Assembly: GCF_013122565.1 (NCBI RefSeq)
Contig: NZ_CP053258.1
Reading direction: 5' to 3' (one strand)
Origin: Escherichia coli
Lineage (GTDB): Bacteria; Pseudomonadota; Gammaproteobacteria; Enterobacterales; Enterobacteriaceae
Length of the DNA: 64,000 nucleotides
Positions 1 through 40,166 of the stretch are shown here, piece after piece. Positions within the stretch are counted from its first letter, which is position 1; each line of letters begins with the position of its first letter. The translations under genes and the position numbers were made by a program. The notes under the pieces are model-generated. The model did not search any database. It was not told where the DNA came from and saw only the letters and a program-made list of their open reading frames with translations.

Positions 1-539
1 TTGCGCCGATGGCCAAAGCCTTGCATGACAGTTTCGGGATAGAAGTCGGCACGATGACGACCATTCATGCCTATACTGGCACCCAGTCACTGGTGGATGG
101 CCCGCGTGGTAAAGATTTACGTGCTTCACGCGCCGCGGCAGAAAATATCATTCCCCACACTACGGGGGCGGCAAAAGCCATTGGTCTGGTGATCCCGGAA
201 CTGAGCGGCAAACTGAAAGGTCATGCGCAACGCGTGCCGGTGAAAACAGGTTCGGTCACTGAACTGGTATCGATTCTCGGAAAAAAAGTGACTGCCGAAG
301 AGGTGAATAACGCACTTAAACAAGCAACCACCAATAACGAGTCATTTGGTTATACCGATGAAGAAATAGTCTCTTCCGATATCATTGGCAGCCATTTCGG
401 TTCGGTGTTTGATGCCACGCAAACGGAAATTACCGCCGTGGGCGATTTACAACTGGTGAAAACGGTCGCCTGGTACGATAACGAATATGGCTTCGTCACG
501 CAGCTTATTCGCACCCTCGAAAAATTCGCTAAACTCTGA
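1..539 (+). CDS. gapC: glyceraldehyde-3-phosphate dehydrogenase, C-terminal part (5' end lies outside the window)
   Basis: ORF 9..539 stays in frame to the window edge; translation is a GAPDH C-terminal catalytic domain; sits next to aldA as in K-12, where gapC is a pseudogene. Intactness of the whole gene cannot be judged here. Confidence 0.8.
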
Positions 540-8047: not shown

Positions 8048-11111
<3,064 letters not shown>

Positions 11112-11126
11112 TTTCTCTATTTTCCT

Positions 11127-12023
11127 TCAGTAACAGCAGTAGCGAATAAAATAAAAAAATACCGGAGCGGTGAAAATTAATGAGTCAATCCTGTCAAGGA
11201 GTCCGCCATGTCCTGGTAATAGTTTTCCACTATCTTTAACACCAATATCTCGTTTGATGGCTGACATCACTACATCGCCGCAAAAACCACTAATACCAAT
11301 TAACAAACCCGCTAATATTGCCTGTAATGTATTTAGCGGTGTCAGTAACGGTCCAATGATCATCGACGCTATCATGGTGGTGATTACGCCGCCGACCAGA
11401 CCTTCCAGCGTTTTTCCAGGGCTGACTTTGGGGACCACTTTTCTTCTGCCGCAGGATTTCCCCCATAAATACTGTGCAATATCGTTTGACTCGGTTAATG
11501 CCAAAAGAAATAACACCAGTAAGGCCCCGCCCTGGATATTTATGGATGGCAACATTAATAACCAGGCGGCATGACTCAAGGCGAAAACGGTCATTATCCA
11601 GCCCCAAAAAATGGCGCTCACGGTACGCAGAAAACCGGAGGGGTCACCCACAAAAACTCGCCAGGTGGCTAATATCAGAAACCCAGCCAAAGGTATAAAT
11701 AACAGAAACAGCTCAAAGCAATTAAAACCGATAAGCAAATAGTTAAGAGGAATAACCCAATATAACCACCGCGGAAAATGTACAGATATAAGCGTACAAT
11801 ATTCTTTCAATGCCAGAAAACTTATCAGCGCAAAAAACGTCAACGTCATCCAGCGTGGACCTGAAATCACCAGTGAAAAACAAATGACGATACCCCACCA
11901 GGTACGAATACGTAATGTAACTTCATCCCCTTTTCTCTCCGGTAACCGCCATACCAGAAAACGGTTTATCAGCGTTGCTAAAATTAACAACGCGAAAAGT
12001 GTTGCCAGAGACTTTTCCAGCAT
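11127..12023 (-). CDS. ynbB: CDP-diglyceride synthetase-like (CdsA family) membrane protein
   Basis: Longest ORF 11127..12059; internal start MLEKSLATLF at 12023 gives 298 aa as in K-12. The ATG overlaps the ynbA stop by 1 nt (TAATG). Confidence 0.8.
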   Translation of the reverse strand: MLEKSLATLFALLILATLINRFLVWRLPERKGDEVTLRIRTWWGIVICFSLVISGPRWMTLTFFALISFLALKEYCTLISVHFPRWLYWVIPLNYLLIGFNCFELFLLFIPLAGFLILATWRVFVGDPSGFLRTVSAIFWGWIMTVFALSHAAWLLMLPSINIQGGALLVLFLLALTESNDIAQYLWGKSCGRRKVVPKVSPGKTLEGLVGGVITTMIASMIIGPLLTPLNTLQAILAGLLIGISGFCGDVVMSAIKRDIGVKDSGKLLPGHGGLLDRIDSLIFTAPVFFYFIRYCCY

Positions 12024-12634
12024 TATCTTACAGCGCTCATAAGAAGCACACTCCGACAACGATTAATCGCAGTCCAGATAAGCAGAATTGAAGCAATGCT
12101 CCATAAAAGATTATTCCATTGCATCCACTGTGGATAAATGGCAACGGTCAGACCCCACAGACCAAATAATAACGCGCGATCGCTTTTGCCAAATGGACCG
12201 GCATAACTGCGAACACCGTTAATCGTCTGCGCGAGTAAACCACAATACTCGGTCAATATGGTGCAAAATAACATGAGTATCACGAGTGATGCGTTACTTT
12301 CCGGTAAAAATAAAAATGGTAAATAGAGCGCAATATCGGAAATAACATCGCCAGTCTCATTCAAAATCGCCCCCAGACGTGTTTGCTGGTTGCACTCACG
12401 CGCCAACATGCCATCCAGCGCATTGAGCGCCATACGGATAAAAAGCACGATGGGCAATAGCAAAAAGAGGATGGGTTGTGCCGCCAACATCAACAGCAAT
12501 CCGGTAAGAAGAGAAAGCGCCAGTGCATCAAGAGTGATGTGATTCGCTGTAACGTGGTGCTTATAAAGCCAAAACATCGTCGGCCTTAACAGCGACTGAA
12601 AGAGCGGTTTTATCTGGTAGAGCGTCATTATCAA
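12023..12634 (-). CDS. ynbA: CDP-alcohol phosphatidyltransferase family membrane protein
   Basis: 203-codon ORF, hydrophobic; first gene of the ynbABCD operon. The start may be 2 codons downstream (MTLYQ). Confidence 0.8.
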   Translation of the reverse strand: MIMTLYQIKPLFQSLLRPTMFWLYKHHVTANHITLDALALSLLTGLLLMLAAQPILFLLLPIVLFIRMALNALDGMLARECNQQTRLGAILNETGDVISDIALYLPFLFLPESNASLVILMLFCTILTEYCGLLAQTINGVRSYAGPFGKSDRALLFGLWGLTVAIYPQWMQWNNLLWSIASILLIWTAINRCRSVLLMSAVR

Positions 12635-12798
12635 TCCTTGATAATTCGGTTTGCGCTATGGTGCATCAATTCCCCTGACGGAGATATCGCAACACGCCGC
12701 TTCATTAAAAATTCAGAATATATCAAGGTATTGGGGACTCACCGTCAGGAATGATTATCCCCAATAAATCAAGTGGTTAAAAATTATTACGCTGTTAT

Positions 12799-15105
12799 TC
12801 AATACAACTCATCAAGTTTTCTCATCGCTTGTTCCCGTATTGCGCGCGTCTTACCGTTAAGCGCCAGCTGCCGAACTAAATCCAGTTCAGGGTTAACAAG
12901 CTCTAACGCCAGCAAAGGATCACGTTTCAGCCTCGCCTTTAATACATCAACTGGAAAACGGGGATTATTCATCGCCACAATCCACCACTCGGGATCAATT
13001 TCTGCCGCCAGTACTGCAGGCGGTGTGTGGCGGTTGTTAAGTGCGCCGAACTTGAAAAATGTGAGATTGCTTTTCGCCAGTGTACTCCACCATATACGAT
13101 CCGGTTGTTTTGCCAGTACATCCAGTTGTGCTAACGCATCGGGGTCTAGTGCATAATAAACACGTAACGCTTCGTTAACCTGCGCACGGGAACTGTTTTC
13201 CTGCCTCAGAAAAAACTTCGCCCAAATATCATTGCGTGGCGTGTTTTGCTGTAATTCCTTGAGAACAACAGCGGGTAAATTATCCCAACTAATTAATGCA
13301 CTCTCTAAAAAGTCCCAGTCGTCCGAACGTATCAGAGAGGTGGCATTTAATAGCATCTGGTCATCAACTTCACCGTAGCTGATAAGCTCAGACAAAATCA
13401 TATCAGCGCTGGTTTCATATGCAGCTGAATCTGCTTTGGGATTATTTTTCCGATGCGATAAAGCACGTTGCCAAATTTTTTGTTTCATTGACGTGCTCAG
13501 ATACTGATTTTTCGCCAGATTACTCCACCCCTCAGGATCGTTGAAACGTGTCAATAACCGTTGTAAAGCAGCGTCAGAGTGAATTACCTGCATATCCCGA
13601 CAGCAAAAGTAGGCAGGGGATTTTTTCTCCATCCTTTTAACAAAATTAAACTGTAAGTTATCTGGCAATGCTAAAAATAACACACGTATTAGATCATCGT
13701 CATTCTCGAATTTTTGGTATAAATATACTGCTATTTTGTCACTCTCTTGTGGCGTCATCCGCAACAATTGACCATGGTGTTTCATCTCTGCCAGCTTTGA
13801 CGCTAAGCTTGTGACAACATCGTTTGATGAATCGTTCGCCAACTGCATTGCCTGATTGTAGGTGAGTTGTCCTCCAGCACCGACCTGACGAATAGAGGAA
13901 TCATCACTGCGGATATAGCCATCAATAATGGATTCGGGCAATAACCACGCATCTTTATAAAGCTCCTGAATGATCATATCCCAATCTCTTTTCGCCAGAG
14001 TCATGACGATATCCAGAGGGAGATTTTCACGTAGCGCAAGATTCAACGGACCGACACCATCAGGTAGATGACTCATTCGCGTCATTATTTCGACAGAGAG
14101 CGGTTCACGGTCGAGCAACCCCAGAACAACAGGCTGGTAACCCAATTGCTGATCGGTCAACTCCAGAATCTCATTGTCAGGCATATATCTCGCCATACTT
14201 TCAATCGTTTGTCCATCATTGCTATTAATAAGTTGTTTGCGTAGGTTAGCTGAAATTCCTTTAAGCCTTGGGAGAGTTCGCATTATGGCAAGATCAAATG
14301 TCGCAATATCTCGTCCTTCAAATGCAGCAACGTTGCCTTCATCCAGCATTTGCAATTCCTGCACTAACTCAGGAGCAGGCTTAGGGCGAAACAGCGCTTC
14401 TTTTTTCATCAGATTACAGACATTCCCTGCCATGCGAATATTGCTTCGCTTAAAAATTTCTTTCAGAGCATCTTCATCATTTATTAGACCCCAATAATAT
14501 GCATCAGGATTTATTATCATCAGCGCTTTTTTGACATTTTCAGTGTCATTTTTGTCACTCGCACGGACCATGAATTCACTATTTGTCGAAGACGCAACAA
14601 CAGGTGCAATTATGTCATTGATAAATATCCCACGCGCATTAATACTCCCCTTAATTGTAGACGGATTATCGTAATATGAGTCGATAAATACCAGTCCACT
14701 TGCATTTATCGAACCGGTAATTAACAGTGGTGAATCCGTAACTATATTCGTTGCCGTCACGTTACCGAGAATAACCCATGGATTAGAAAGAGAGAAAGTG
14801 GAAATATTACCTTTGACTGTCAAATTGCCAAGAACAATCAATTTTTGATTACTCTCTATATTACCGTCTACCACTAAATCGCCACGATGCACTTTCCAGT
14901 CCGATGCAGATAAACCGAAGGGGACAAGATTCACGCTACTGTTGATAGCTTGTTCAACTTGTTGTTTATCTTCAGCGGTAGCCGCAGAAAAAAATGGTTC
15001 AATATCAACTGCATTTGCAACACATCGAAGGTCCGCCTGTACTGGAAGACTCAGCATAAACAGGGGAAGTAAACCTATCCAGCCGCAAATCCTGGCCTTA
15101 AACAT
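12799..15105 (-). CDS. ydbD: large secreted or periplasmic protein YdbD
   Basis: Longest ORF starts at GTG 15111; ATG at 15105 has a GGAG Shine-Dalgarno 5 nt upstream and gives 768 aa as in K-12; N-terminal signal-peptide-like segment. Confidence 0.8.
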   Translation of the reverse strand: MFKARICGWIGLLPLFMLSLPVQADLRCVANAVDIEPFFSAATAEDKQQVEQAINSSVNLVPFGLSASDWKVHRGDLVVDGNIESNQKLIVLGNLTVKGNISTFSLSNPWVILGNVTATNIVTDSPLLITGSINASGLVFIDSYYDNPSTIKGSINARGIFINDIIAPVVASSTNSEFMVRASDKNDTENVKKALMIINPDAYYWGLINDEDALKEIFKRSNIRMAGNVCNLMKKEALFRPKPAPELVQELQMLDEGNVAAFEGRDIATFDLAIMRTLPRLKGISANLRKQLINSNDGQTIESMARYMPDNEILELTDQQLGYQPVVLGLLDREPLSVEIMTRMSHLPDGVGPLNLALRENLPLDIVMTLAKRDWDMIIQELYKDAWLLPESIIDGYIRSDDSSIRQVGAGGQLTYNQAMQLANDSSNDVVTSLASKLAEMKHHGQLLRMTPQESDKIAVYLYQKFENDDDLIRVLFLALPDNLQFNFVKRMEKKSPAYFCCRDMQVIHSDAALQRLLTRFNDPEGWSNLAKNQYLSTSMKQKIWQRALSHRKNNPKADSAAYETSADMILSELISYGEVDDQMLLNATSLIRSDDWDFLESALISWDNLPAVVLKELQQNTPRNDIWAKFFLRQENSSRAQVNEALRVYYALDPDALAQLDVLAKQPDRIWWSTLAKSNLTFFKFGALNNRHTPPAVLAAEIDPEWWIVAMNNPRFPVDVLKARLKRDPLLALELVNPELDLVRQLALNGKTRAIREQAMRKLDELY

Positions 15106-15122
15106 ATGCACTCCATGCCATT

Positions 15123-16029: not shown

Positions 16030-16184
16030 CGCACCCTGCCCTGTAATAAAACGGATTAAGAAAAATCAGTATAGAAACGAAAAGAGATAAATAATGCGAA
16101 GGTGTAAACAAGATTGCTTGATGAGTTGCTCTGTTATCCTGAAAGACACCAAAACAAAACGCGTAAAGCGCCGCATCCGGCAAT

Positions 16185-16237: not shown

Positions 16238-19200
16238 TTAGAACGTTTTCTTGAAGTTCAGCATCACGCCTTTGTCGCTGATGCCGTCCTCTTTCCAGTT
16301 GTACGCATCCAGGTTCAGTGAGCTTTCTTTGCTGCTGTACTTCACGCCGACGCTTGCCAGGCTGTTGATGCCGCCACCCTTCTGACCGTCATCGACGTTA
16401 AAGTGCTGACTGCCTGCGCCTGCCAGGCTTGCCGTGCGCTGGCTCTTCGCGTAGCTCAGATTCGGCCCGCCTTCCAGCGTGGCGCTAGCGCTCCAGCCGT
16501 CTTTACCTGCGTAATCCAGTTTCAACCCGACGATGCTGTCCACCGCCGTTTCGCTGCCACTGTTCATATTCAGGTTAAAGTCTCCGGCATTGCGCTCCTG
16601 ATAGCCACCTTCCAGTGTGTGACGCAGTTTAACACCCGCATATGGCGTAACCTTCAGTCCTTCGCTCGGTTCGAAAGTCTTCGCCCCTTCGCTGCGGAAC
16701 TCCAGGTACTGCTGCTTCACGTCGGTATCAGCCGTTTTGTTTGTGTTGCTAAATGCAATCGAACGGCTGCTGTCAAGGTTGTGAACGTCATAACGCAATG
16801 CGTTATTCCAGTTCATGCCGTTGTCGAAGGACATCTGATGTTTCAGGCCAAAGAACTGGCTGTAGCCGCCGGTTACGCCGTTGTCGCCCGCTTTCTGCGC
16901 ACCATCGCCATCCAGACGCGCAATACCGTATTCCAGGCTCATGCTCTGGCTTTCGCTCAGGTCGATGGTTTTACGCAATGCCAGCATGTCGTACTCGGTA
17001 TTATTACCTAACTCGGCACGCGGATCGCCTTTCGCCACCACGTTGAACGCCAGACCATTGCCCACTTTCGGCGCGGCATCCGCCAGCATACTAAAGCGGT
17101 TGCTTAACACGCGCGCTTCACGGAACACCGTGGTCGCCAGGCTACCGCTGACCTGTTTCAGGGCGCTGTTCAGTTCGGCGGTGGTGCCAACGTTCAGGCT
17201 GGTATACAGCTCGTTGTTGGTGTAACCCGCATCCAGTGCCTTCGCGACGTCATTTACCGAAGCATCGGTTGCGACATCGGTGTAGGCATTTTTGCTCATG
17301 GTAACGTCAACGTTACCGTTGGCATCGGTGCTGCCTTTGGCGTTCCATACGACCGTAGAGGAAACGATGTTGTCCACACCGCTGATGTTTTCGCCTTTGA
17401 ATACATCGTTAACGACAACGGTGGTATCCGCTGTTCCTGCACTAAACCCGGCATTAACACTCACGTTGTCGCCAATCACCAGGTTATTCGCGCTGAGCGT
17501 ACCGGAACTCCCGTCGCTATTGGTACCGATGGTATAGTTGCTCAGCAGTTGCGGCGCATTTGAATCAGCAGGCGGGGTTGGAACATCACCTTGTGACGGC
17601 GTAGTTGATGCGTCTGGTACGGTGATATCCACAGTACCGTTGTGGTCGTTTTGTGTACCCGTTGTTCCAGGAGCATAAATATCGCATCCGGTATCACACA
17701 GCAGGTTAATTTCACCGTTGTTAATGATGGCTTTCGTTTGCCCACCAAACGCCCAGGAATTATCGGCATAGACATTAATCACACCCGTTTGCGTGTTATT
17801 AATTGTTGTTTCCCGACCATTGCCTTTAATACCAATTAAACCTTCGCCATTGGTTCCATCCTGTTGCCCCTGCTCAGTACCCACATTAATGGTGCCACTG
17901 TTCACCAACTGAACAACATAACTGGTTGTGCCGCCACTGATGCCCACCGCATTATCGCCCTGAACATTAATAACGCCAGCGTTAGCAAAGTTATAACCTC
18001 GTCCTAAATCAACCAACGGAGCCGCAGGGTTAATACCATTGATTACCCCTGTTTCTGTGTTCCAGATCCATTTACCTTTACTGTTCGAGCCAGTACTTTC
18101 GGTTTTGATCGCGCTGTAGCCATTTGTAGCCGTAATGGTTCCACGGTTAACCTGAGATACAGAATCCCCGGTTCTGGTTACATGAATAATCGCGTTTTCA
18201 CCGCCCGTTACCGCATTACCACTATTCGTCAGGGTCGCACCCGCTTCGTTGAAGAACAGGAAACTCCCGTTGATGAGTGATTGCCCATCTTCGGTCACCG
18301 TCATTTCACCGGTATTCACTACGTTCTGTTGATAGCTGTTGCCGGTAATTGAACCGCTGAACTCACCTTCGTTAAAGAAGGAAACCGCACCATTCAACGT
18401 AAGGAGATCTGTTGTCATGCTCCCGGTTTCACGGTTATAGATCGTGGTTTTGCTGTTAATACTGTCAACATCCAGGGTCCCACTATTCTCCAACCCTTGA
18501 GTGACACTCAGTTCGCCATTGATGGTCAGACTGGCATCAGGTTGGTTATATAACCAGCCGTTTGCATCAACATTGCCATTAAGCGTTTCATCTCCGTAGT
18601 TTGCCAGGTTATTAACAACGACAAAACCGTCGGTAGTTGTGGTTTTGCTGATGCTCTCCCCGCTACCAGACAACTCGCTAAGAACATCTTTGTCATCCGG
18701 CGTCACCCCCATATGGGAATCACTTTCATCCATTGGATTACCGAAAAGAGTAATTTTTCCGTAGTTGAGAATGGTACCGGTGCTATCTTTATAAAACGCC
18801 TGACCAATATCAGTATTAATATTAATCACACCATCCTGGTCATTAATGGCCAGACCACCTTGAATTGCCCCCATCGCGAACAACTGGTTATCTTGCTGCT
18901 TCGTCACACCCTCATCGGCGGTGAGATTGATCGTTCCCTGGTTGACAACGGTCCCGCCGCTCATCGCCAGCATACCAAAACCTTCGTTATTAACATTGAT
19001 GGTTCCGGTATTTAACCCACTGGCATCGCCATTTCCGATATCGGTTGACCCTACAACAACGCCACCGGACATAAGATAAGGATGGGGTGGTTGCCAGTAG
19101 GATTTACTAATGATATTGCCATCTTCATCAAGTTCGGGAACAAAACCATCGACATTGATTTCCCCGGCATTTGTCGCCGTGCCTTTAGATGCTGCAGCAG

Positions 19201-22200
19201 CATAGTTTCCCGCGCCTTGCAAATTAATGGTGGCGTCAGATTCATTCACTGTGATGCCGTAATCACTGGCCCACAGCCCGTAGTTGACACCGAAATACCA
19301 TTTCAGGGGGGATTCAGACATCCCGCCTGCGTATGCAGGTGTCGTTACAGAGATCAGATTAATAACCCCACCCGACGCATTCGTAACCTGAGAATTCTGG
19401 CCACGAGCACGCATTGTCCCCCCCCTGGAGAATTCCTCACCGCTAGGTTTGACATTAATAATTCCACTATTAGTGATATGTGCACCATTGTTAGCCGTCA
19501 TTAAATCCTGGCTATCCATTGTGTTAATCACACCTTTGTTTTCAACGCTGGACTGACTGCCAATAGCAGAAATAAGCGCACGTTCAAAGAAGAAAAAGTC
19601 GGTTTCCCTGGCTTTACTGGATATATCCGTTACAGCGTTTTCATCAAATATAACTTTTCCACCGTCCGCCACCGAGACCAACGTAAAGGCACCCAATTCC
19701 TGACGGGTATCCATTGTCGAATGACCACTAATGTTAACGGTATTGTCACCAATAACCGATACGCCATCTATAACATGTGCGGCGCTATCACCACTAATAT
19801 TAATACCGCCATCAATATTAACGGTATTCTTCTCGCCAGAAACAATTATGCCACTCACTAAATTTTCCTGGTGTAGCAGCTCCCCTTGTACGGTGATATC
19901 AACATGGCCACTAATATCTACAGTGTTATTTTTACCACTAATCGTTCCACCTGTTAATGCTGTGATTTGTGCATCAGGGTTATCGCCGAGGATGGAATTA
20001 ACATTGATGCTTCCGTCAACGCTAATATGGCTGTCATTACCCGTCAGACTGAAACCTGTAGCACCCGGCGCATTGCCCTCGCTGTCTGGTTGCTGGAATA
20101 CGTTAATATCGCCGCTTAATTGAACCTGTTCACGGTCACCCGCAATGGATACCCCAGTTCCGTACCGTGAAACATCAATTTCGCCCACGTTACCGAAAAC
20201 TTCATCATCACCATCAATCAGAATCCCCACAGAACCGGAATCCGTGACAACAATTTTGCCTTTATTACTTAACTGCGAGTTATTACCGGCAATATCAATA
20301 CCCGTTGCCCCTCCGCTGACGTAGAGGTCACCTTCCTGGCTAATTGTTGCATTGTGACCGGCAACTTTTGTCCCTACTGCATTCGCACCGTCAACCGTCA
20401 TATCCCCGGCGATATTCATCTCATTGCCATCGCCAGTGATGGTTATACCTGTGGCATTTTCACCCAAAATATTAAGATCATAGGTTGCCAGGGTTATACT
20501 ATTGTTGTCGCCGATAATCTCCATGCCAGTCGTATCGTCTTTAACCAGCATTGAGCCAGCAAGAGAAATACTGCTGCTGTCCCCGGTGATTTTTACACCA
20601 GTACCGCTATTTGTTGTGGTGATGTCTCCCACATTGACAAAGGTAGTATTATCACCATTGATTAACACGCCGTAGGGGTTTCCGTCACTGTCCGCCTGAC
20701 CTACATTGATATCACCAATGTTCATAAAGGTTGTTTGATCGCCATCCAGCAATACACCGATGGAAGTATCATCCACCACAGTAACATTACCCTTATTACT
20801 GACGAGAGTACCTTTACCCTCGGCGTCAATACCGTGTGCGCCACCGCTGACGTATAAATCACCCTGTTGCCTTACAATGGCATCTTCGCCGATAATTTTT
20901 GATCCCGTTGAATTTGCACCATCGACGGTCATGTCGCCTTTGATTTCAATGCGGGCATCATCCCCTGTAATCACACTCCCCGTGCCACCATTCGTGATTT
21001 CGACATCACCAACGGTGTTCAACGTAGTACGATCGCCATTGACAATAACGGCCGTACCACCATCGACATCTGTCTCACCATTATTAGTAATGGTGATATC
21101 GTCACCGGTAAGAATACCTACCACCGAACCTTCACCAATCGCGGTAGTTTGACCGTCGTTGTTCAGGGTGATGTCGTTACCGTCAACGTTTATCACAACG
21201 CCGCCATTCAGCGCGATGTTGCCGCCATGGTCGGTAATAGTGGCATCGTTAATATGGAAATGTTCGCCAGTTGTACCGTCTGCGGTGGTGAGTGACTCTA
21301 TGATTATTTCGATTTTTCCCGCTTCGTCATAGCGCCAGGTGGAGGTTCCGCTCGGATTGACGCCATTGAACGAAGCAGTGTTAGCCGCCTCGTCGACTAA
21401 CCAATCCTTTACGATTGTGGTAGTGCCGCCAGGTCCGGTAAGCGTATAGCTGCCATCGTCATTTTTGGTGTAGGTAAAGGTGGTATCACGTAATTTTAGG
21501 GTCTTCGCGTCCTGATCCCAGGTGACATCGTTTTTATAGACCACTGGATCGTGTTTAACTGGCGTGTCATCGCCACCGTCATCCGGGGTGTCATCGCCGC
21601 CATCATCTGGCGGGACGGGGGTGTCGCCGCCATCATCCGGCGGGACTGGTGTGTCGCCGCCATCATCCGGCGGGACTGGTGTATCACCGCCATCATCCGG
21701 CGGGACTGGTGTGTCGCCGCCATCATCCGGCGGGACTGGTGTGTCACCGCCATCATCCGGCGGGACAGGTGTATCACTGCCATCGTCTGGCGGGACTGGC
21801 GTGTCGCCGCCATCATCCGGCGGGATGGGTGTATCACCGCCATCATCCGGCGGGACGGGTGTATCACCGCCATCATCCGGCGGGACTGGCGTGTCGCCGC
21901 CATCATCCGGCGGGACGGGTGTATCACCACCATCATCCGGCGGGACTGGCGTGTCGCCGCCATCATCCGGCACCGGAGACGAATCGTCATGATGATTATT
22001 ATTATCGTGGAGTGCATATACTGCGACACCTGTGACTGCCGCTGCCAGCCCCACTGCAGCCCAGGGTAATAACTCATTATCTTCAACTGATTTACACTCT
22101 GCCGGCAGCTTTTCTAGCTGTTCTTTACTTAGTGATTTAATATTGGCCGGGCAGCTAATCTTGCTGGATTTACGAGATTCATCCGATGTTTCCGCTATCG

Positions 22201-22273
22201 ACGTATCTGCCGCCCATGTCTGGCTGCTTAACGCCATTGCAACACAGACACTGAGCAATTTTTTCCTTTGCAT
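16238..22273 (-). CDS. ydbA: autotransporter adhesin-like protein, intact 2011-aa form
   Basis: Uninterrupted 2011-codon ORF with signal peptide, N-terminal PDDGGDTPVP tandem repeats, long Gly/Thr/Asn-rich passenger region and C-terminal beta-barrel-like domain ending in F. The K-12 copy is split by IS elements (from memory). Confidence 0.85.
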   Translation of the reverse strand: MQRKKLLSVCVAMALSSQTWAADTSIAETSDESRKSSKISCPANIKSLSKEQLEKLPAECKSVEDNELLPWAAVGLAAAVTGVAVYALHDNNNHHDDSSPVPDDGGDTPVPPDDGGDTPVPPDDGGDTPVPPDDGGDTPVPPDDGGDTPIPPDDGGDTPVPPDDGSDTPVPPDDGGDTPVPPDDGGDTPVPPDDGGDTPVPPDDGGDTPVPPDDGGDTPVPPDDGGDDTPDDGGDDTPVKHDPVVYKNDVTWDQDAKTLKLRDTTFTYTKNDDGSYTLTGPGGTTTIVKDWLVDEAANTASFNGVNPSGTSTWRYDEAGKIEIIIESLTTADGTTGEHFHINDATITDHGGNIALNGGVVINVDGNDITLNNDGQTTAIGEGSVVGILTGDDITITNNGETDVDGGTAVIVNGDRTTLNTVGDVEITNGGTGSVITGDDARIEIKGDMTVDGANSTGSKIIGEDAIVRQQGDLYVSGGAHGIDAEGKGTLVSNKGNVTVVDDTSIGVLLDGDQTTFMNIGDINVGQADSDGNPYGVLINGDNTTFVNVGDITTTNSGTGVKITGDSSSISLAGSMLVKDDTTGMEIIGDNNSITLATYDLNILGENATGITITGDGNEMNIAGDMTVDGANAVGTKVAGHNATISQEGDLYVSGGATGIDIAGNNSQLSNKGKIVVTDSGSVGILIDGDDEVFGNVGEIDVSRYGTGVSIAGDREQVQLSGDINVFQQPDSEGNAPGATGFSLTGNDSHISVDGSINVNSILGDNPDAQITALTGGTISGKNNTVDISGHVDITVQGELLHQENLVSGIIVSGEKNTVNIDGGINISGDSAAHVIDGVSVIGDNTVNISGHSTMDTRQELGAFTLVSVADGGKVIFDENAVTDISSKARETDFFFFERALISAIGSQSSVENKGVINTMDSQDLMTANNGAHITNSGIINVKPSGEEFSRGGTMRARGQNSQVTNASGGVINLISVTTPAYAGGMSESPLKWYFGVNYGLWASDYGITVNESDATINLQGAGNYAAAASKGTATNAGEINVDGFVPELDEDGNIISKSYWQPPHPYLMSGGVVVGSTDIGNGDASGLNTGTINVNNEGFGMLAMSGGTVVNQGTINLTADEGVTKQQDNQLFAMGAIQGGLAINDQDGVININTDIGQAFYKDSTGTILNYGKITLFGNPMDESDSHMGVTPDDKDVLSELSGSGESISKTTTTDGFVVVNNLANYGDETLNGNVDANGWLYNQPDASLTINGELSVTQGLENSGTLDVDSINSKTTIYNRETGSMTTDLLTLNGAVSFFNEGEFSGSITGNSYQQNVVNTGEMTVTEDGQSLINGSFLFFNEAGATLTNSGNAVTGGENAIIHVTRTGDSVSQVNRGTITATNGYSAIKTESTGSNSKGKWIWNTETGVINGINPAAPLVDLGRGYNFANAGVINVQGDNAVGISGGTTSYVVQLVNSGTINVGTEQGQQDGTNGEGLIGIKGNGRETTINNTQTGVINVYADNSWAFGGQTKAIINNGEINLLCDTGCDIYAPGTTGTQNDHNGTVDITVPDASTTPSQGDVPTPPADSNAPQLLSNYTIGTNSDGSSGTLSANNLVIGDNVSVNAGFSAGTADTTVVVNDVFKGENISGVDNIVSSTVVWNAKGSTDANGNVDVTMSKNAYTDVATDASVNDVAKALDAGYTNNELYTSLNVGTTAELNSALKQVSGSLATTVFREARVLSNRFSMLADAAPKVGNGLAFNVVAKGDPRAELGNNTEYDMLALRKTIDLSESQSMSLEYGIARLDGDGAQKAGDNGVTGGYSQFFGLKHQMSFDNGMNWNNALRYDVHNLDSSRSIAFSNTNKTADTDVKQQYLEFRSEGAKTFEPSEGLKVTPYAGVKLRHTLEGGYQERNAGDFNLNMNSGSETAVDSIVGLKLDYAGKDGWSASATLEGGPNLSYAKSQRTASLAGAGSQHFNVDDGQKGGGINSLASVGVKYSSKESSLNLDAYNWKEDGISDKGVMLNFKKTF
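21571..21972 (-). repeat. tandem array of about 13 30-bp repeats inside ydbA (encoding PDDGGDTPVP units)
   Basis: Twelve near-identical head-to-tail 30-bp units (CATCATCCGGCGGGACTGGTGTGTCGCCGC on the plus strand) from 21601 to 21960, plus degenerate flanking units; in frame with ydbA. Confidence 0.95.
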
Positions 22274-22674
22274 ATGAAATTCCTCATAAATAGATGCTTA
22301 CGCAGCCCAGATAAACTGCACAGGGTTAAATAGTTAAAAATATTCGAAATCTGGATATTGTTTTTAACAGAATAAATATATTGATTTAGTGAATGTATTT
22401 ATTCATTAAGTCAATATATCTTTTCTTTAATTTATATTTTTAACGCATTTATTTCAACTTAAAATATGGCGTAATTGAGATTAAATCCGATAACACCGAT
22501 GAATTAAATAATGCAATTAATTCATGAAATAAATAAATTATCATGTGAATGAAGCATTCATCATCGGCATCTATATGAAATTAAATGAAAAATAATTCTC
22601 TATAGCATTGCAGTTAATATTGAATATTTCAGGAGGTACAACCAGGCAGATTTTTCTCGACGAATACCGACTTA

Positions 22675-31618: not shown

Positions 31619-31646
31619 ATGCACTGGATAAGGATTATCCAATTCT

Positions 31647-31685
31647 AAAAAAAAGCCCGGACGACTGTTCGGGCTTGTCTTTTTA
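31647..31685. terminator. bidirectional intrinsic terminator shared by pfo and micC
   Basis: A8 - GCCCGGACGACTGTTCGGGC - TTGTCTTTTT: a GC-rich hairpin flanked by an A-run and a T-rich run. Confidence 0.8.
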
Positions 31686-31756
31686 TATGTTAGAAAATCA
31701 GTGGCAATGCAATGGCCCAACAGAAAATAAAATCTGTGACAATAAAGGCATATAAC
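31647..31756 (-). ncRNA. micC: MicC small regulatory RNA (OmpC-repressing)
   Basis: Minus strand begins GTTATATGCCTTTATTGTCACAGATTTTATTTTCTG and ends in a GC hairpin plus U8, matching the MicC sequence as I recall it; lies between pfo and ompN. Confidence 0.8.
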
Positions 31757-31983
31757 CCGCGCAGAATAACGTATAGCAAATTAAAAGTATAATTTTTATT
31801 TTGTATGTATTATCTTCGATACATTCACCAGACTTATTATCATTTCAGAAGAATTATTTGATTAAGGTTTTACTTAAGGCGTAACAAATGATATTTATCG
31901 GCTAACTGAACTTCTCCTTTAGGATGTTTTCACTCCCCGAAATGGGGATAAAAGGCAAATAAAATAACTAAAGGATTTATTCA

Positions 31984-33699: not shown

Positions 33700-33724
33700 G
33701 CCCGCACATTGCTGCGGGCTTTTT
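33700..33724 (+). terminator. intrinsic terminator of uspF
   Basis: Stem GCCCGCA / TGCGGGC followed by T5, 8 nt after the uspF stop. Confidence 0.8.
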
Positions 33725-33867
33725 GATTCATTTCGCAAATGTGCTGACATTTTCCCCTCTAATCCGTACCATACACGCCACAGTTTTTATATCAGATTTC
33801 TTATGCTGGGCGTTCCGGCATGACGCATACTCTTCTGATGCCATATAACGAATTGAGTCGCTTTTAA

Positions 33868-34803
33868 ATGTCGCAAAATCAAGAAATTAGCAAGAAAGAA
33901 CAATACAATCTGAACAAATTACAAAAACGCCTGCGTCGTAACGTGGGCGAAGCCATAGCTGACTTCAATATGATTGAAGAAGGCGATCGCATCATGGTTT
34001 GCCTCTCCGGGGGTAAAGACAGCTATACCATGCTGGAGATTCTGCGCAATTTGCAGCAAAGCGCGCCAATCAATTTTTCACTGGTGGCTGTTAACCTCGA
34101 TCAAAAGCAACCGGGCTTCCCGGAACACGTTCTGCCCGAGTATCTTGAAAAGCTGGGCGTTGAGTACAAGATTGTTGAAGAGAACACTTACGGTATCGTG
34201 AAAGAGAAGATTCCAGAGGGCAAAACCACTTGCTCACTGTGTTCTCGGCTACGTCGCGGTATCCTTTATCGCACCGCAACGGAACTGGGGGCGACGAAGA
34301 TCGCGTTGGGCCACCATCGTGACGATATCCTGCAAACGTTGTTCTTAAATATGTTCTACGGCGGCAAGATGAAAGGTATGCCTCCGAAACTGATGAGCGA
34401 TGATGGCAAACATATCGTTATTCGTCCACTGGCCTACTGCCGCGAGAAAGATATTCAGCGATTTGCCGATGCAAAAGCGTTCCCGATTATTCCGTGCAAC
34501 CTGTGCGGTTCACAGCCTAACCTGCAACGACAAGTGATTGCTGACATGTTGCGTGACTGGGATAAACGTTATCCGGGGCGTATCGAGACGATGTTCAGCG
34601 CGATGCAGAATGTGGTGCCGTCGCATCTGTGCGATACCGACCTGTTCGATTTTAAAGGCATTACCCACGGTTCTGAAGTGGTTAACGGCGGTGATCTGGC
34701 GTTTGATCGCGAAGAGATCCCACTACAACCGGCGGGCTGGCAGCCTGAAGAAGATGAAAATCAGTTGGATGAGTTACGGCTGAATGTGGTTGAAGTGAAA
34801 TAA
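33868..34803 (+). CDS. ttcA: tRNA 2-thiocytidine biosynthesis protein TtcA
   Basis: 311-aa ORF with PP-loop SGGKDS and CxxC motifs. Confidence 0.9.
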
Positions 34804-36565: not shown

Positions 36566-36687
36566 AAAAAAAAGCCGACTCATCAAAGTCGGCGTCGTAC
36601 GAATCAATTGTGCTATGCAGTAATTCAAAAAAGGAAGTAAGACAATATGGAGCGCAACGCCCATCGCTTGACGTTGCATTCACCTGC
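36566..36687 (-). ncRNA. fnrS: FnrS small regulatory RNA (FNR-activated)
   Basis: Minus strand reads GCAGGTGAATGCAACGTCAAGCGATGGGCG ... GCCGACTTTGATGAGTCGGC + T8, about 122 nt, matching FnrS as I recall it; lies between zntB and dbpA with an FNR box at about -42. Confidence 0.85.
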
Positions 36688-40064: not shown

Positions 40065-40158
40065 ACCGGCGCAGAGGAGACAATGCCGGATTTAAGACGC
40101 GGATGCACTGCTGTGTGTACTGTAGAGTCTGGCGGATGTCGACAGACTCTATTTTTTT
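40065..40158 (+). ncRNA. mcaS: McaS small regulatory RNA
   Basis: Plus strand ACCGGCGCAGAGGAGACAATGCCGGATTTAAGACGCGGATGCACTGCTGTGTGTACTGTAGAGTCTGGCGGATGTCGACAGACTCT + T7 matches McaS (IsrA) as I recall it; terminator ends 8 nt from the abgR stop. Confidence 0.75.
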
Positions 40159-40166
40159 ATGCAGTT

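Follow-up and report, generated by a model that had tools for sequence, protein, structure and literature searches.

Introduction

The autotransporter adhesin BigA of Salmonella and other Enterobacteriaceae (NCBIfam model NF033178) has been described by Celik et al. as combining an AIDA-like passenger with a barrel of the NalP type (PMC3419190). In pertactin, the Pro-rich repeats R1 (GGXXP) and R2 (PQP) vary in number between Bordetella strains and species (PMC12994607). Here we describe ydbA, a gene of the BigA/YdbA family, in a 64,000-nucleotide stretch of the Escherichia coli contig NZ_CP053258.1 (assembly GCF_013122565.1), referred to below as the window. We consider it very probable that this is an intact ydbA allele encoding a type Va autotransporter with an in-frame, length-polymorphic linker in its N-terminal part.

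Pertactin is the closest parallel to the repeats of YdbA, both proteins having a type Va passenger with short, Pro-rich tandem repeats of variable copy number. However, pertactin carries 1-8 copies of repeats with 3-5 residues, located in loops that protrude from the folded β-helix, whereas the repeats of YdbA are 10-residue units, present in 6-12 or more copies, within a free linker of ~150 residues ahead of the folded passenger. A role of the repeats in immune selection is documented for pertactin only. A loose comparison is with VacA of Helicobacter pylori. The mature N-terminus of VacA has a Gly/Ala-rich (GxxxG-type) hydrophobic helix that is needed for membrane channel formation; VacA is without a Cys loop, a His patch or a repeat linker.

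An uninterrupted ydbA frame and its predicted translocator

The ydbA coding sequence occupies 16238..22273 on the minus strand of the window, as do all features of the gene described below. It is a single open reading frame (ORF) of 2011 amino acids (aa) plus stop, with an ATG start and 0 internal stops in 2011 codons. The uninterrupted frame had been reported at these positions, with the strand unstated, in a first-pass annotation made from the letters alone. The window ydbA is an ordinary gene, and this very allele is already annotated in public databases: the exact 2011-aa protein is held at NCBI as WP_171459426.1/QJU24328.1 from E. coli, recorded as a member of the BigA/YdbA family. In MG1655, ydbA follows paaY and is annotated as two pseudogene pieces (b1401/b1405) split by the insertion sequences (IS) IS2 and IS30, which confirms the IS disruption of the K-12 copy stated in the first-pass annotation. 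An intact ydbA is not unusual, intact alleles being common; a full-length version is reported for ~42% of the strains of phylogroup A (PMC4951805), and the annotation of many complete genomes shows an unbroken gene at this locus.

The C-terminal end of the protein, where a β-barrel-type domain had been suggested, matches known autotransporter translocators. An outer-membrane β-barrel of ~12 long strands is predicted for aa 1741-2011 (16241..17053), ending in NFKKTF, from the Pfam family PF03797, AlphaFold2 and Foldseek. It should be mentioned that PF03797 was unlisted in the full-length Pfam scan and was seen only when the C-terminal 350 aa were scanned alone, in which case it covers aa 1783-1982 (E = 2e-19; 70.8 bits, the cutoff being 26). 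The AlphaFold2 model of the last 460 aa, built with 17 homologues, has a mean predicted local distance difference test score (pLDDT) of 85.7 and comprises a β-sandwich, a helical segment and ~12 barrel strands. The top Foldseek matches to this model in the PDB are EstA, AaaA, EspP, NalP, BrkA and Hbp, with E values down to 3e-10. The target-normalised TM-score (TMt) for NalP is 0.67-0.69, and the presence of NalP among the best structural matches agrees with the barrel placement proposed for BigA by Celik et al. (PMC3419190). A sequence search of the PDB with the full protein gave no match at E <= 1. In the AlphaFold2 model, the barrel is preceded by the helical segment (aa 1664-1733, 17075..17284), including a long helix (model residues 164-182) that, by analogy with solved type Va structures, would lie in the barrel pore.

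Two family domains flank the repetitive part of the passenger. The BigA_N β-barrel domain PF25784 (aa 244-323, 21305..21544) was found with E = 7.8e-26 and is modelled by AlphaFold2 with a pLDDT of ~90 or more. The BigA_beta sandwich domain PF25783 (aa 1579-1663, 17285..17539) was found with E = 2.7e-25 and corresponds to a β region in the C-terminal model. Both are above the Pfam gathering cutoff. Between them lies a repetitive, Gly/Asn/Asp-rich passenger of mosaic sequence (aa 324-1578, 17540..21304), predicted by AlphaFold2 to be a β-helix; aa 320-420 form regular short strands with pLDDT >90 in the model, and some ydbA alleles are named 'pectate lyase-fold' by RefSeq. Judged by these domain matches and models, the ORF is a classical (type Va) monomeric autotransporter of the BigA/YdbA family. 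We propose that a Sec signal peptide would direct YdbA to the periplasm, that the 12-stranded C-terminal barrel would insert in the outer membrane, and that the ~1700-aa predicted β-helix passenger would be exported through or alongside it. YdbA would be expressed and surface-exposed, at least under some conditions.

The repeat array and the linker it encodes

The whole array is 414 bp long (21557..21970) and encodes aa 102-239 of the 2011. Twelve full 30-bp units, each translated as PDDGGDTPVP (21611..21970, aa 102-221), are followed by two short terminal units, PDDGGDDT and PDDGGDDTPV (21557..21610, aa 222-239), which are kept at the end of the array in strains XJ5.2, MB53, VE-T9, 7/2 and EFF60. 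Tandem Repeats Finder (TRF) reports a period of 30, 12.6 copies, 88% matches and a score of 574 at 21594..21971, far beyond chance. The earlier count of about 13 units at 21571..21972 was essentially right, with 12 full and 2 short units found in frame, but its description of the units as near-identical does not hold at 88% identity. Exact repeated words in the array still reach 56 bp, which is sufficient for slippage or unequal recombination. Several other ORFs overlap the array in other frames or on the other strand (21496..22086, 21551..22069 and others); they were rejected as genes, being stop-free artefacts of the 30-bp periodicity. A Ca-binding DxDxDG or RTX motif in the repeat unit was also rejected because the pattern does not fit.

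The array is predicted to encode an intrinsically disordered linker of ~150 aa, acidic and rich in Pro, Asp and Gly. Residues 89-236 are 32% Asp, 26% Pro and 18% Gly, with a net charge of about -47, and the AlphaFold2 pLDDT is <55 over aa 63-230. The array sits between the N-terminal module described below and the BigA_N domain with the β-helix, and the linker would join the two. The acidic, Pro-rich composition noted in the first-pass annotation is correct, but the role of a stalk that it had assigned to this segment is not. With the barrel at the C-terminus, the N-terminus of the passenger is its distal end, and an array at aa 102-239 cannot form a stalk that connects the passenger to the membrane.

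Among the 12 full units, seven of the nine variable nucleotide columns fall at the third codon position, and pairwise comparison of codons gives 172 synonymous versus 22 nonsynonymous differences. Since most unit differences are synonymous, the unit peptide is under constraint, and the codon comparison demonstrates purifying selection on it. The PDDGGD core is found again in relatives belonging to Yokenella, Enterobacter and E. albertii.

Copy-number variation among isolates

The first-pass annotation had predicted in-frame changes of copy number and had called for a comparison of isolates, and such a comparison shows the array to differ between them. The N-terminal allele of the window is shared by 114 of 5426 genomes. 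Among these, the spans homologous to a 931-bp query are 901, 871, 802, 772 and 751 bp, differing by 30, 60, 129, 159 and 180 bp, all in frame; none of those listed is longer than that of the window. The number of full units is 12 in the window, 11 in XJ5.2 and MB53, 10 in VE-T9, 7 plus one 7-residue unit in strain 7/2, and 6 in EFF60, while KE47, which belongs to another N-terminal lineage, has 8. The sole other full-length member of the protein's 90% cluster, also from E. coli, has 2 substitutions and 8 units versus the 12 of the window. Two Houston isolates of 'strain 405' show, over 5.75 kb, a 51-bp indel inside the array as their sole difference. In the 14 full-length E. albertii orthologues, 3-16 units of the nine-residue PDDGG[ND]VTP are present, and the protein length minus nine residues per unit is constant at 1769 aa (n=14).

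Phase variation would involve a repeat unit that is not a multiple of three or a repeat in the promoter. The 30-bp unit stays in frame, and all differences observed (30, 51, 60, 120, 129, 159 and 180 bp) are multiples of three, which points to length variation and not to phase variation. On this comparison of alleles, the array is a length-polymorphic surface-protein repeat of the variable-number tandem repeat (VNTR) type, and not an on/off switch. Units would be gained or lost by replication slippage or unequal recombination, altering the length of the linker while the frame is kept. The length of the linker may matter, either for the reach of the N-terminal module or, as in pertactin, for antigenic variation. 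Surface proteins with repeats of variable length are well known, and the finding at ydbA changes little in this respect. As a clean in-frame VNTR that varies between otherwise identical clinical isolates, the array could be used as a fine-scale typing marker, and it also warns against trust in short-read assemblies at ydbA.

It is noted that in one of the 'strain 405' isolates (NZ_CM132957.1, 2558..3337) RefSeq calls ydbA a truncated pseudogene. Over its first 3.2 kb, this copy is identical to the intact one of the sister isolate except for the 51-bp indel in the repeat, so that any real defect must lie further downstream.

A conserved module at the N-terminus

By inspection of the translation, aa 1-21 (22211..22273) form a Sec-type signal peptide, with an n-region MQRKK, a hydrophobic core LLSVCVAMALSS and a cleavage site QTWA/AD, a pattern kept in homologues; a signal peptide had been annotated here from the outset. 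A lipoprotein signal peptide was considered and rejected: LSVC at residues 7-10 would give a leader of only 9 residues, and V at position -1 is unfit for a lipobox.

Three further elements lie between the signal peptide and the array. The conserved Cys loop (CP...LPxEC, aa 41-60, 22094..22153) has a pair of Cys residues 19 residues apart; C41, P42, L56 and C60 are invariant in 16 aligned homologues. The Cys pair is present in 22 of 22 sequences examined, namely the window protein and 21 long or nearly full-length BigA/YdbA members, with a spacing of 19 residues in 21 sequences and of 21 residues in one. A Gly/Ala-rich hydrophobic helix, LLPWAAVGLAAAVTGVAVYAL (aa 68-88, 22010..22072), was identified from hydropathy and family comparison. 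It contains the most hydrophobic 19-residue window of the protein (Kyte-Doolittle 1.77), is rich in small-xxx-small patterns of Gly and Ala, and has a comparable counterpart in all family members examined, for which the Hessa scale sums to +0.4 to +5. The helix is followed by an acidic His/Asn/Asp patch, HDNNNHHDDSSPV (aa 89-101, 21971..22009), in which H94 and H95 are invariant in the alignment; across the family, the patches after the hydrophobic helix are His-rich and poor in Lys and Arg. The order of the elements is the same in all 22 sequences. The low-complexity linker always comes at the same place in them, is 22-164 aa long and is built of lineage-specific repeats. Sixteen aligned members also have a YdbA-type C-terminus in common.

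With the N-terminal 330 aa as query, a word-indexed search gave only 14 proteins, mostly fragments, and an exhaustive profile search was therefore used. The profile of the N-terminal region matches only 117 clusters among 1.84 billion representatives. As far as these alignments and searches reach, the module of Cys loop, hydrophobic helix and His patch is conserved and family-specific. The module, tethered by the repeat, is without a published function and offers a defined target for studies of an uncharacterised adhesin family.

The AlphaFold2 model of aa 1-240 has no confident structure and is thus uninformative on the hydrophobic helix. Because the summed Hessa values are positive and the flanks are acidic and not basic, the helix (aa 68-88) is probably translocated rather than held in the inner membrane. 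Anchoring in the inner membrane by this segment was rejected, because a passenger behind a cleaved signal peptide and such an anchor would remain in the cytoplasm; the positive Hessa values and the lack of basic residues after the segment also speak against it. One could imagine a helix that inserts into membranes or self-associates conditionally at the tip of the passenger, triggered for example by pH or metal, with the repeat number setting its reach. This reading takes the module to be shared by the whole BigA/YdbA family and to combine a Cys loop of the disulfide type, a Gly/Ala-zipper helix of marginal hydrophobicity with acidic residues and a His patch at its flanks, and an acidic Pro-rich tether of variable length, which is the part encoded by the 30-bp array. 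We regard this as a distinctly unlikely suggestion, which, if true, would make the module a new functional add-on to type Va autotransporters. The N-terminal helix of VacA or the lipid anchor of NalP-type proteins would be loose analogues; VacA and YdbA have no sequence relationship, and that the YdbA helix acts on membranes at all is no more than a conjecture.

Mosaic structure of the allele and selection

No complete RefSeq E. coli genome covers at least 80% of the window ydbA at megablast sensitivity. This is explained by a mosaic pattern of identity to two alleles. In sliding comparisons of protein identity, aa 1-1100 of the window protein are 72-99% identical to the XJ5.2 allele versus 45-67% to the KE47 allele, and aa 1200-1600 are 23-37% identical to XJ5.2 versus 90-98% to KE47; over aa 1100-2011, the identity to KE47 is 90-100%. 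The recombination junction lies near aa 1100-1150 (~18800..19000; about 18970), with XJ5.2-type sequence on its 5' side and KE47-type sequence on its 3' side. Judged from these identities, two known ydbA types are combined as a mosaic in the window allele. The 400 bp upstream of the gene follow the XJ5.2-type 5' half and have no relationship to the corresponding regions of K-12 and KE47.

Synonymous divergence within ydbA is 0.17-0.4, compared with ~1% divergence of the flanks. The ratio of nonsynonymous to synonymous divergence (dN/dS) amounts to 0.02 over the barrel and to 0.07-0.25 over the passenger, as expected of a coding sequence maintained by purifying selection. On these estimates, ydbA is an old, recombining locus under purifying selection. 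An old, mosaic and recombining locus of this kind is typical of surface antigens under diversifying pressure.

The K-12 allele retains much of this architecture, namely the chromosomal position by pdxI(ydbC)/ydbD, the N-terminal module, BigA_N and the barrel, and its last 1.1 kb have ~94% DNA identity to the window allele. In contrast, its N-terminal half is only 30-33% identical to that of the window, a short, degenerate Pro/Asp linker (45 aa) without a tandem array replaces the repeats, and near-identical passenger repeats of ~93 aa, read from the translation by eye, are present. Some database proteins have the YdbA N-terminus fused to phage tail-fibre-like sequence or to a ynbC-like methyltransferase; these fusions indicate that ydbA has been truncated in other strains by prophage insertion or by deletion.

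Alternative explanations

Several observations count against the interpretation of ydbA as an intact, surface-exposed autotransporter with a length-variable linker. A Foldseek search of the N-terminal model against the PDB gave nothing significant (best E = 0.2), leaving the predicted β-helix unmatched, and no fold is therefore assigned to BigA_N or to the first β-helix rungs. The protein shares BigA_N and BigA_beta with BigA, and GenBank names it BigA, but the NCBIfam BigA model NF033178 aligns to aa 534-2011 with 2053 bits against a cutoff of 3400, which makes it a member of the BigA/YdbA family and not BigA proper. The literature search yielded no study on the function of YdbA or of enterobacterial BigA. 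The 400 bp upstream of ydbA have a GC content of 32%, typical of silenced genes, and the K-12 ydbA transcript is up ~7-fold in an rpoZ mutant, the rise being seen only in that mutant (PMC5811629). These last two points also favour the view that ydbA is intact but cryptic, with H-NS-type silencing of its AT-rich promoter and no surface protein under ordinary conditions, which we take to be a serious possibility, if somewhat short of probable. The upstream region has only a weak promoter match, the gene is often pseudogenised or truncated (in K-12, in MB53 and in chimeric or truncated fragments), and authors working on Salmonella remark that the inducing conditions are unknown for most adhesins (PMC13228587). 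However, the dN/dS values of 0.02-0.25 imply selection on the protein, so that it must be made under some conditions, and a silenced gene may still be functional. Public assemblies may also give wrong repeat counts where an array is longer than the reads, although the records compared include several complete chromosomes. That the repeat number in the window is an assembly artefact, the true array being shorter or longer, is very unlikely in our judgement. The 414-bp array is indeed longer than short reads, and some of the compared records are draft assemblies. Against this, the units can be told apart by their synonymous differences, the identical protein comes from a 4.82-Mb contig, and the variation is also found among complete chromosomes, with all differences being whole units or in frame.

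The linker could also be a neutral spacer that drifts in sequence and length, in which case the copy-number differences would be mere mutational noise. Its predicted disorder, its range of 22-164 aa across the family with lineage-specific unit types, and the degenerate 45-aa version that is all K-12 has would fit such a spacer. The 172 synonymous versus 22 nonsynonymous unit differences, the PDDGGD core kept across genera and the presence of a linker in every family member examined, always at the same place, do not; the synonymous bias, the kept core and the fixed place argue for a constraint on composition, if not on exact length. We thus find neutral drift of the linker rather doubtful and favour a constrained linker of variable length. 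A further alternative concerns the start of the mature protein. Extended signal peptides (ESPR) occur in some autotransporters, and aa 68-88 could be the core of a bipartite, ESPR-like signal peptide of ~88 aa, cut after VYA, with the mature passenger starting directly with the His patch and the repeat. In most homologues, the segment does end in small-x-small followed by a polar stretch, but such patterns are trivial in Gly/Ala-rich helices. Moreover, a canonical signal peptide is already present at aa 1-21, its n-region being positive and its cleavage site of the AxA type. Throughout the family, acidic rather than basic residues precede aa 68-88, which speaks against an N-in orientation. The Cys pair conserved between the two segments suits an oxidising compartment, and there was no ESPR Pfam match in the scans of the full-length protein and the C-terminal 350 aa. 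The long signal peptide is accordingly highly improbable, and cleavage after aa 21 is preferred.

Expression signals and neighbouring genes

A Shine-Dalgarno sequence, GAGGA (22281..22285), was read from the sequence 7 nt before the ATG. The weak sigma-70-like promoter match TTGAAA-17-TAAATT (22429..22457) lies in a region that has fewer such matches than expected by chance. A terminator-like stem-loop with a T run (16157..16178), a consensus match only, is located ~60 nt past the ydbA stop. About 100-150 bp upstream of the ydbA start, there is an imperfect inverted repeat (22369..22426) with 26-nt arms, 85% complementary, and a 6-nt spacer. It overlaps a weak 21-bp tandem repeat reported by TRF within the region of 32% GC, and could either be bound by a regulator or have arisen by chance in AT-rich DNA.

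The gene order in the window is ydbH-ynbE-ydbL-ydbA-pdxI(ydbC)-ydbD, and the ydbA flanks are 98.8% identical to many E. coli chromosomes. In XJ5.2 and KE47, ydbA likewise lies between ydbL and pdxI/ydbD, while in K-12 the paa cluster is inserted upstream. This position, together with the Pfam domains, identifies the window gene as the orthologue of K-12 ydbA. At 22274..22674, the window lacks the paa/tynA/feaRB cluster that lies between ydbL and ydbA in K-12, so that ydbA comes directly after ydbL; the presence or absence of the cluster between the two genes is a known polymorphism (PMC4951805). On the other side of ydbA, XJ5.2 has a ydbD with an internal stop and a partly deleted ynbA-ynbC; these genes are intact in the window at 8048..15111 (ydbD of 770 aa, ynbA-D).

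At the edge of the window, an apparent inverted cybB at 9..539 was rejected; the sequence is simply the 3' part of gapC, which the window boundary truncates. At 33700..33870, uspF is directly followed by ttcA, and the ~12-kb Rac prophage remnant of XJ5.2 is absent there. Matches at the Rfam gathering score were found for the small RNAs (sRNAs) FnrS (36570..36687, minus strand), MicC (31639..31759, minus strand) and McaS (40065..40160, plus strand), which are the sRNA genes expected for this E. coli region.

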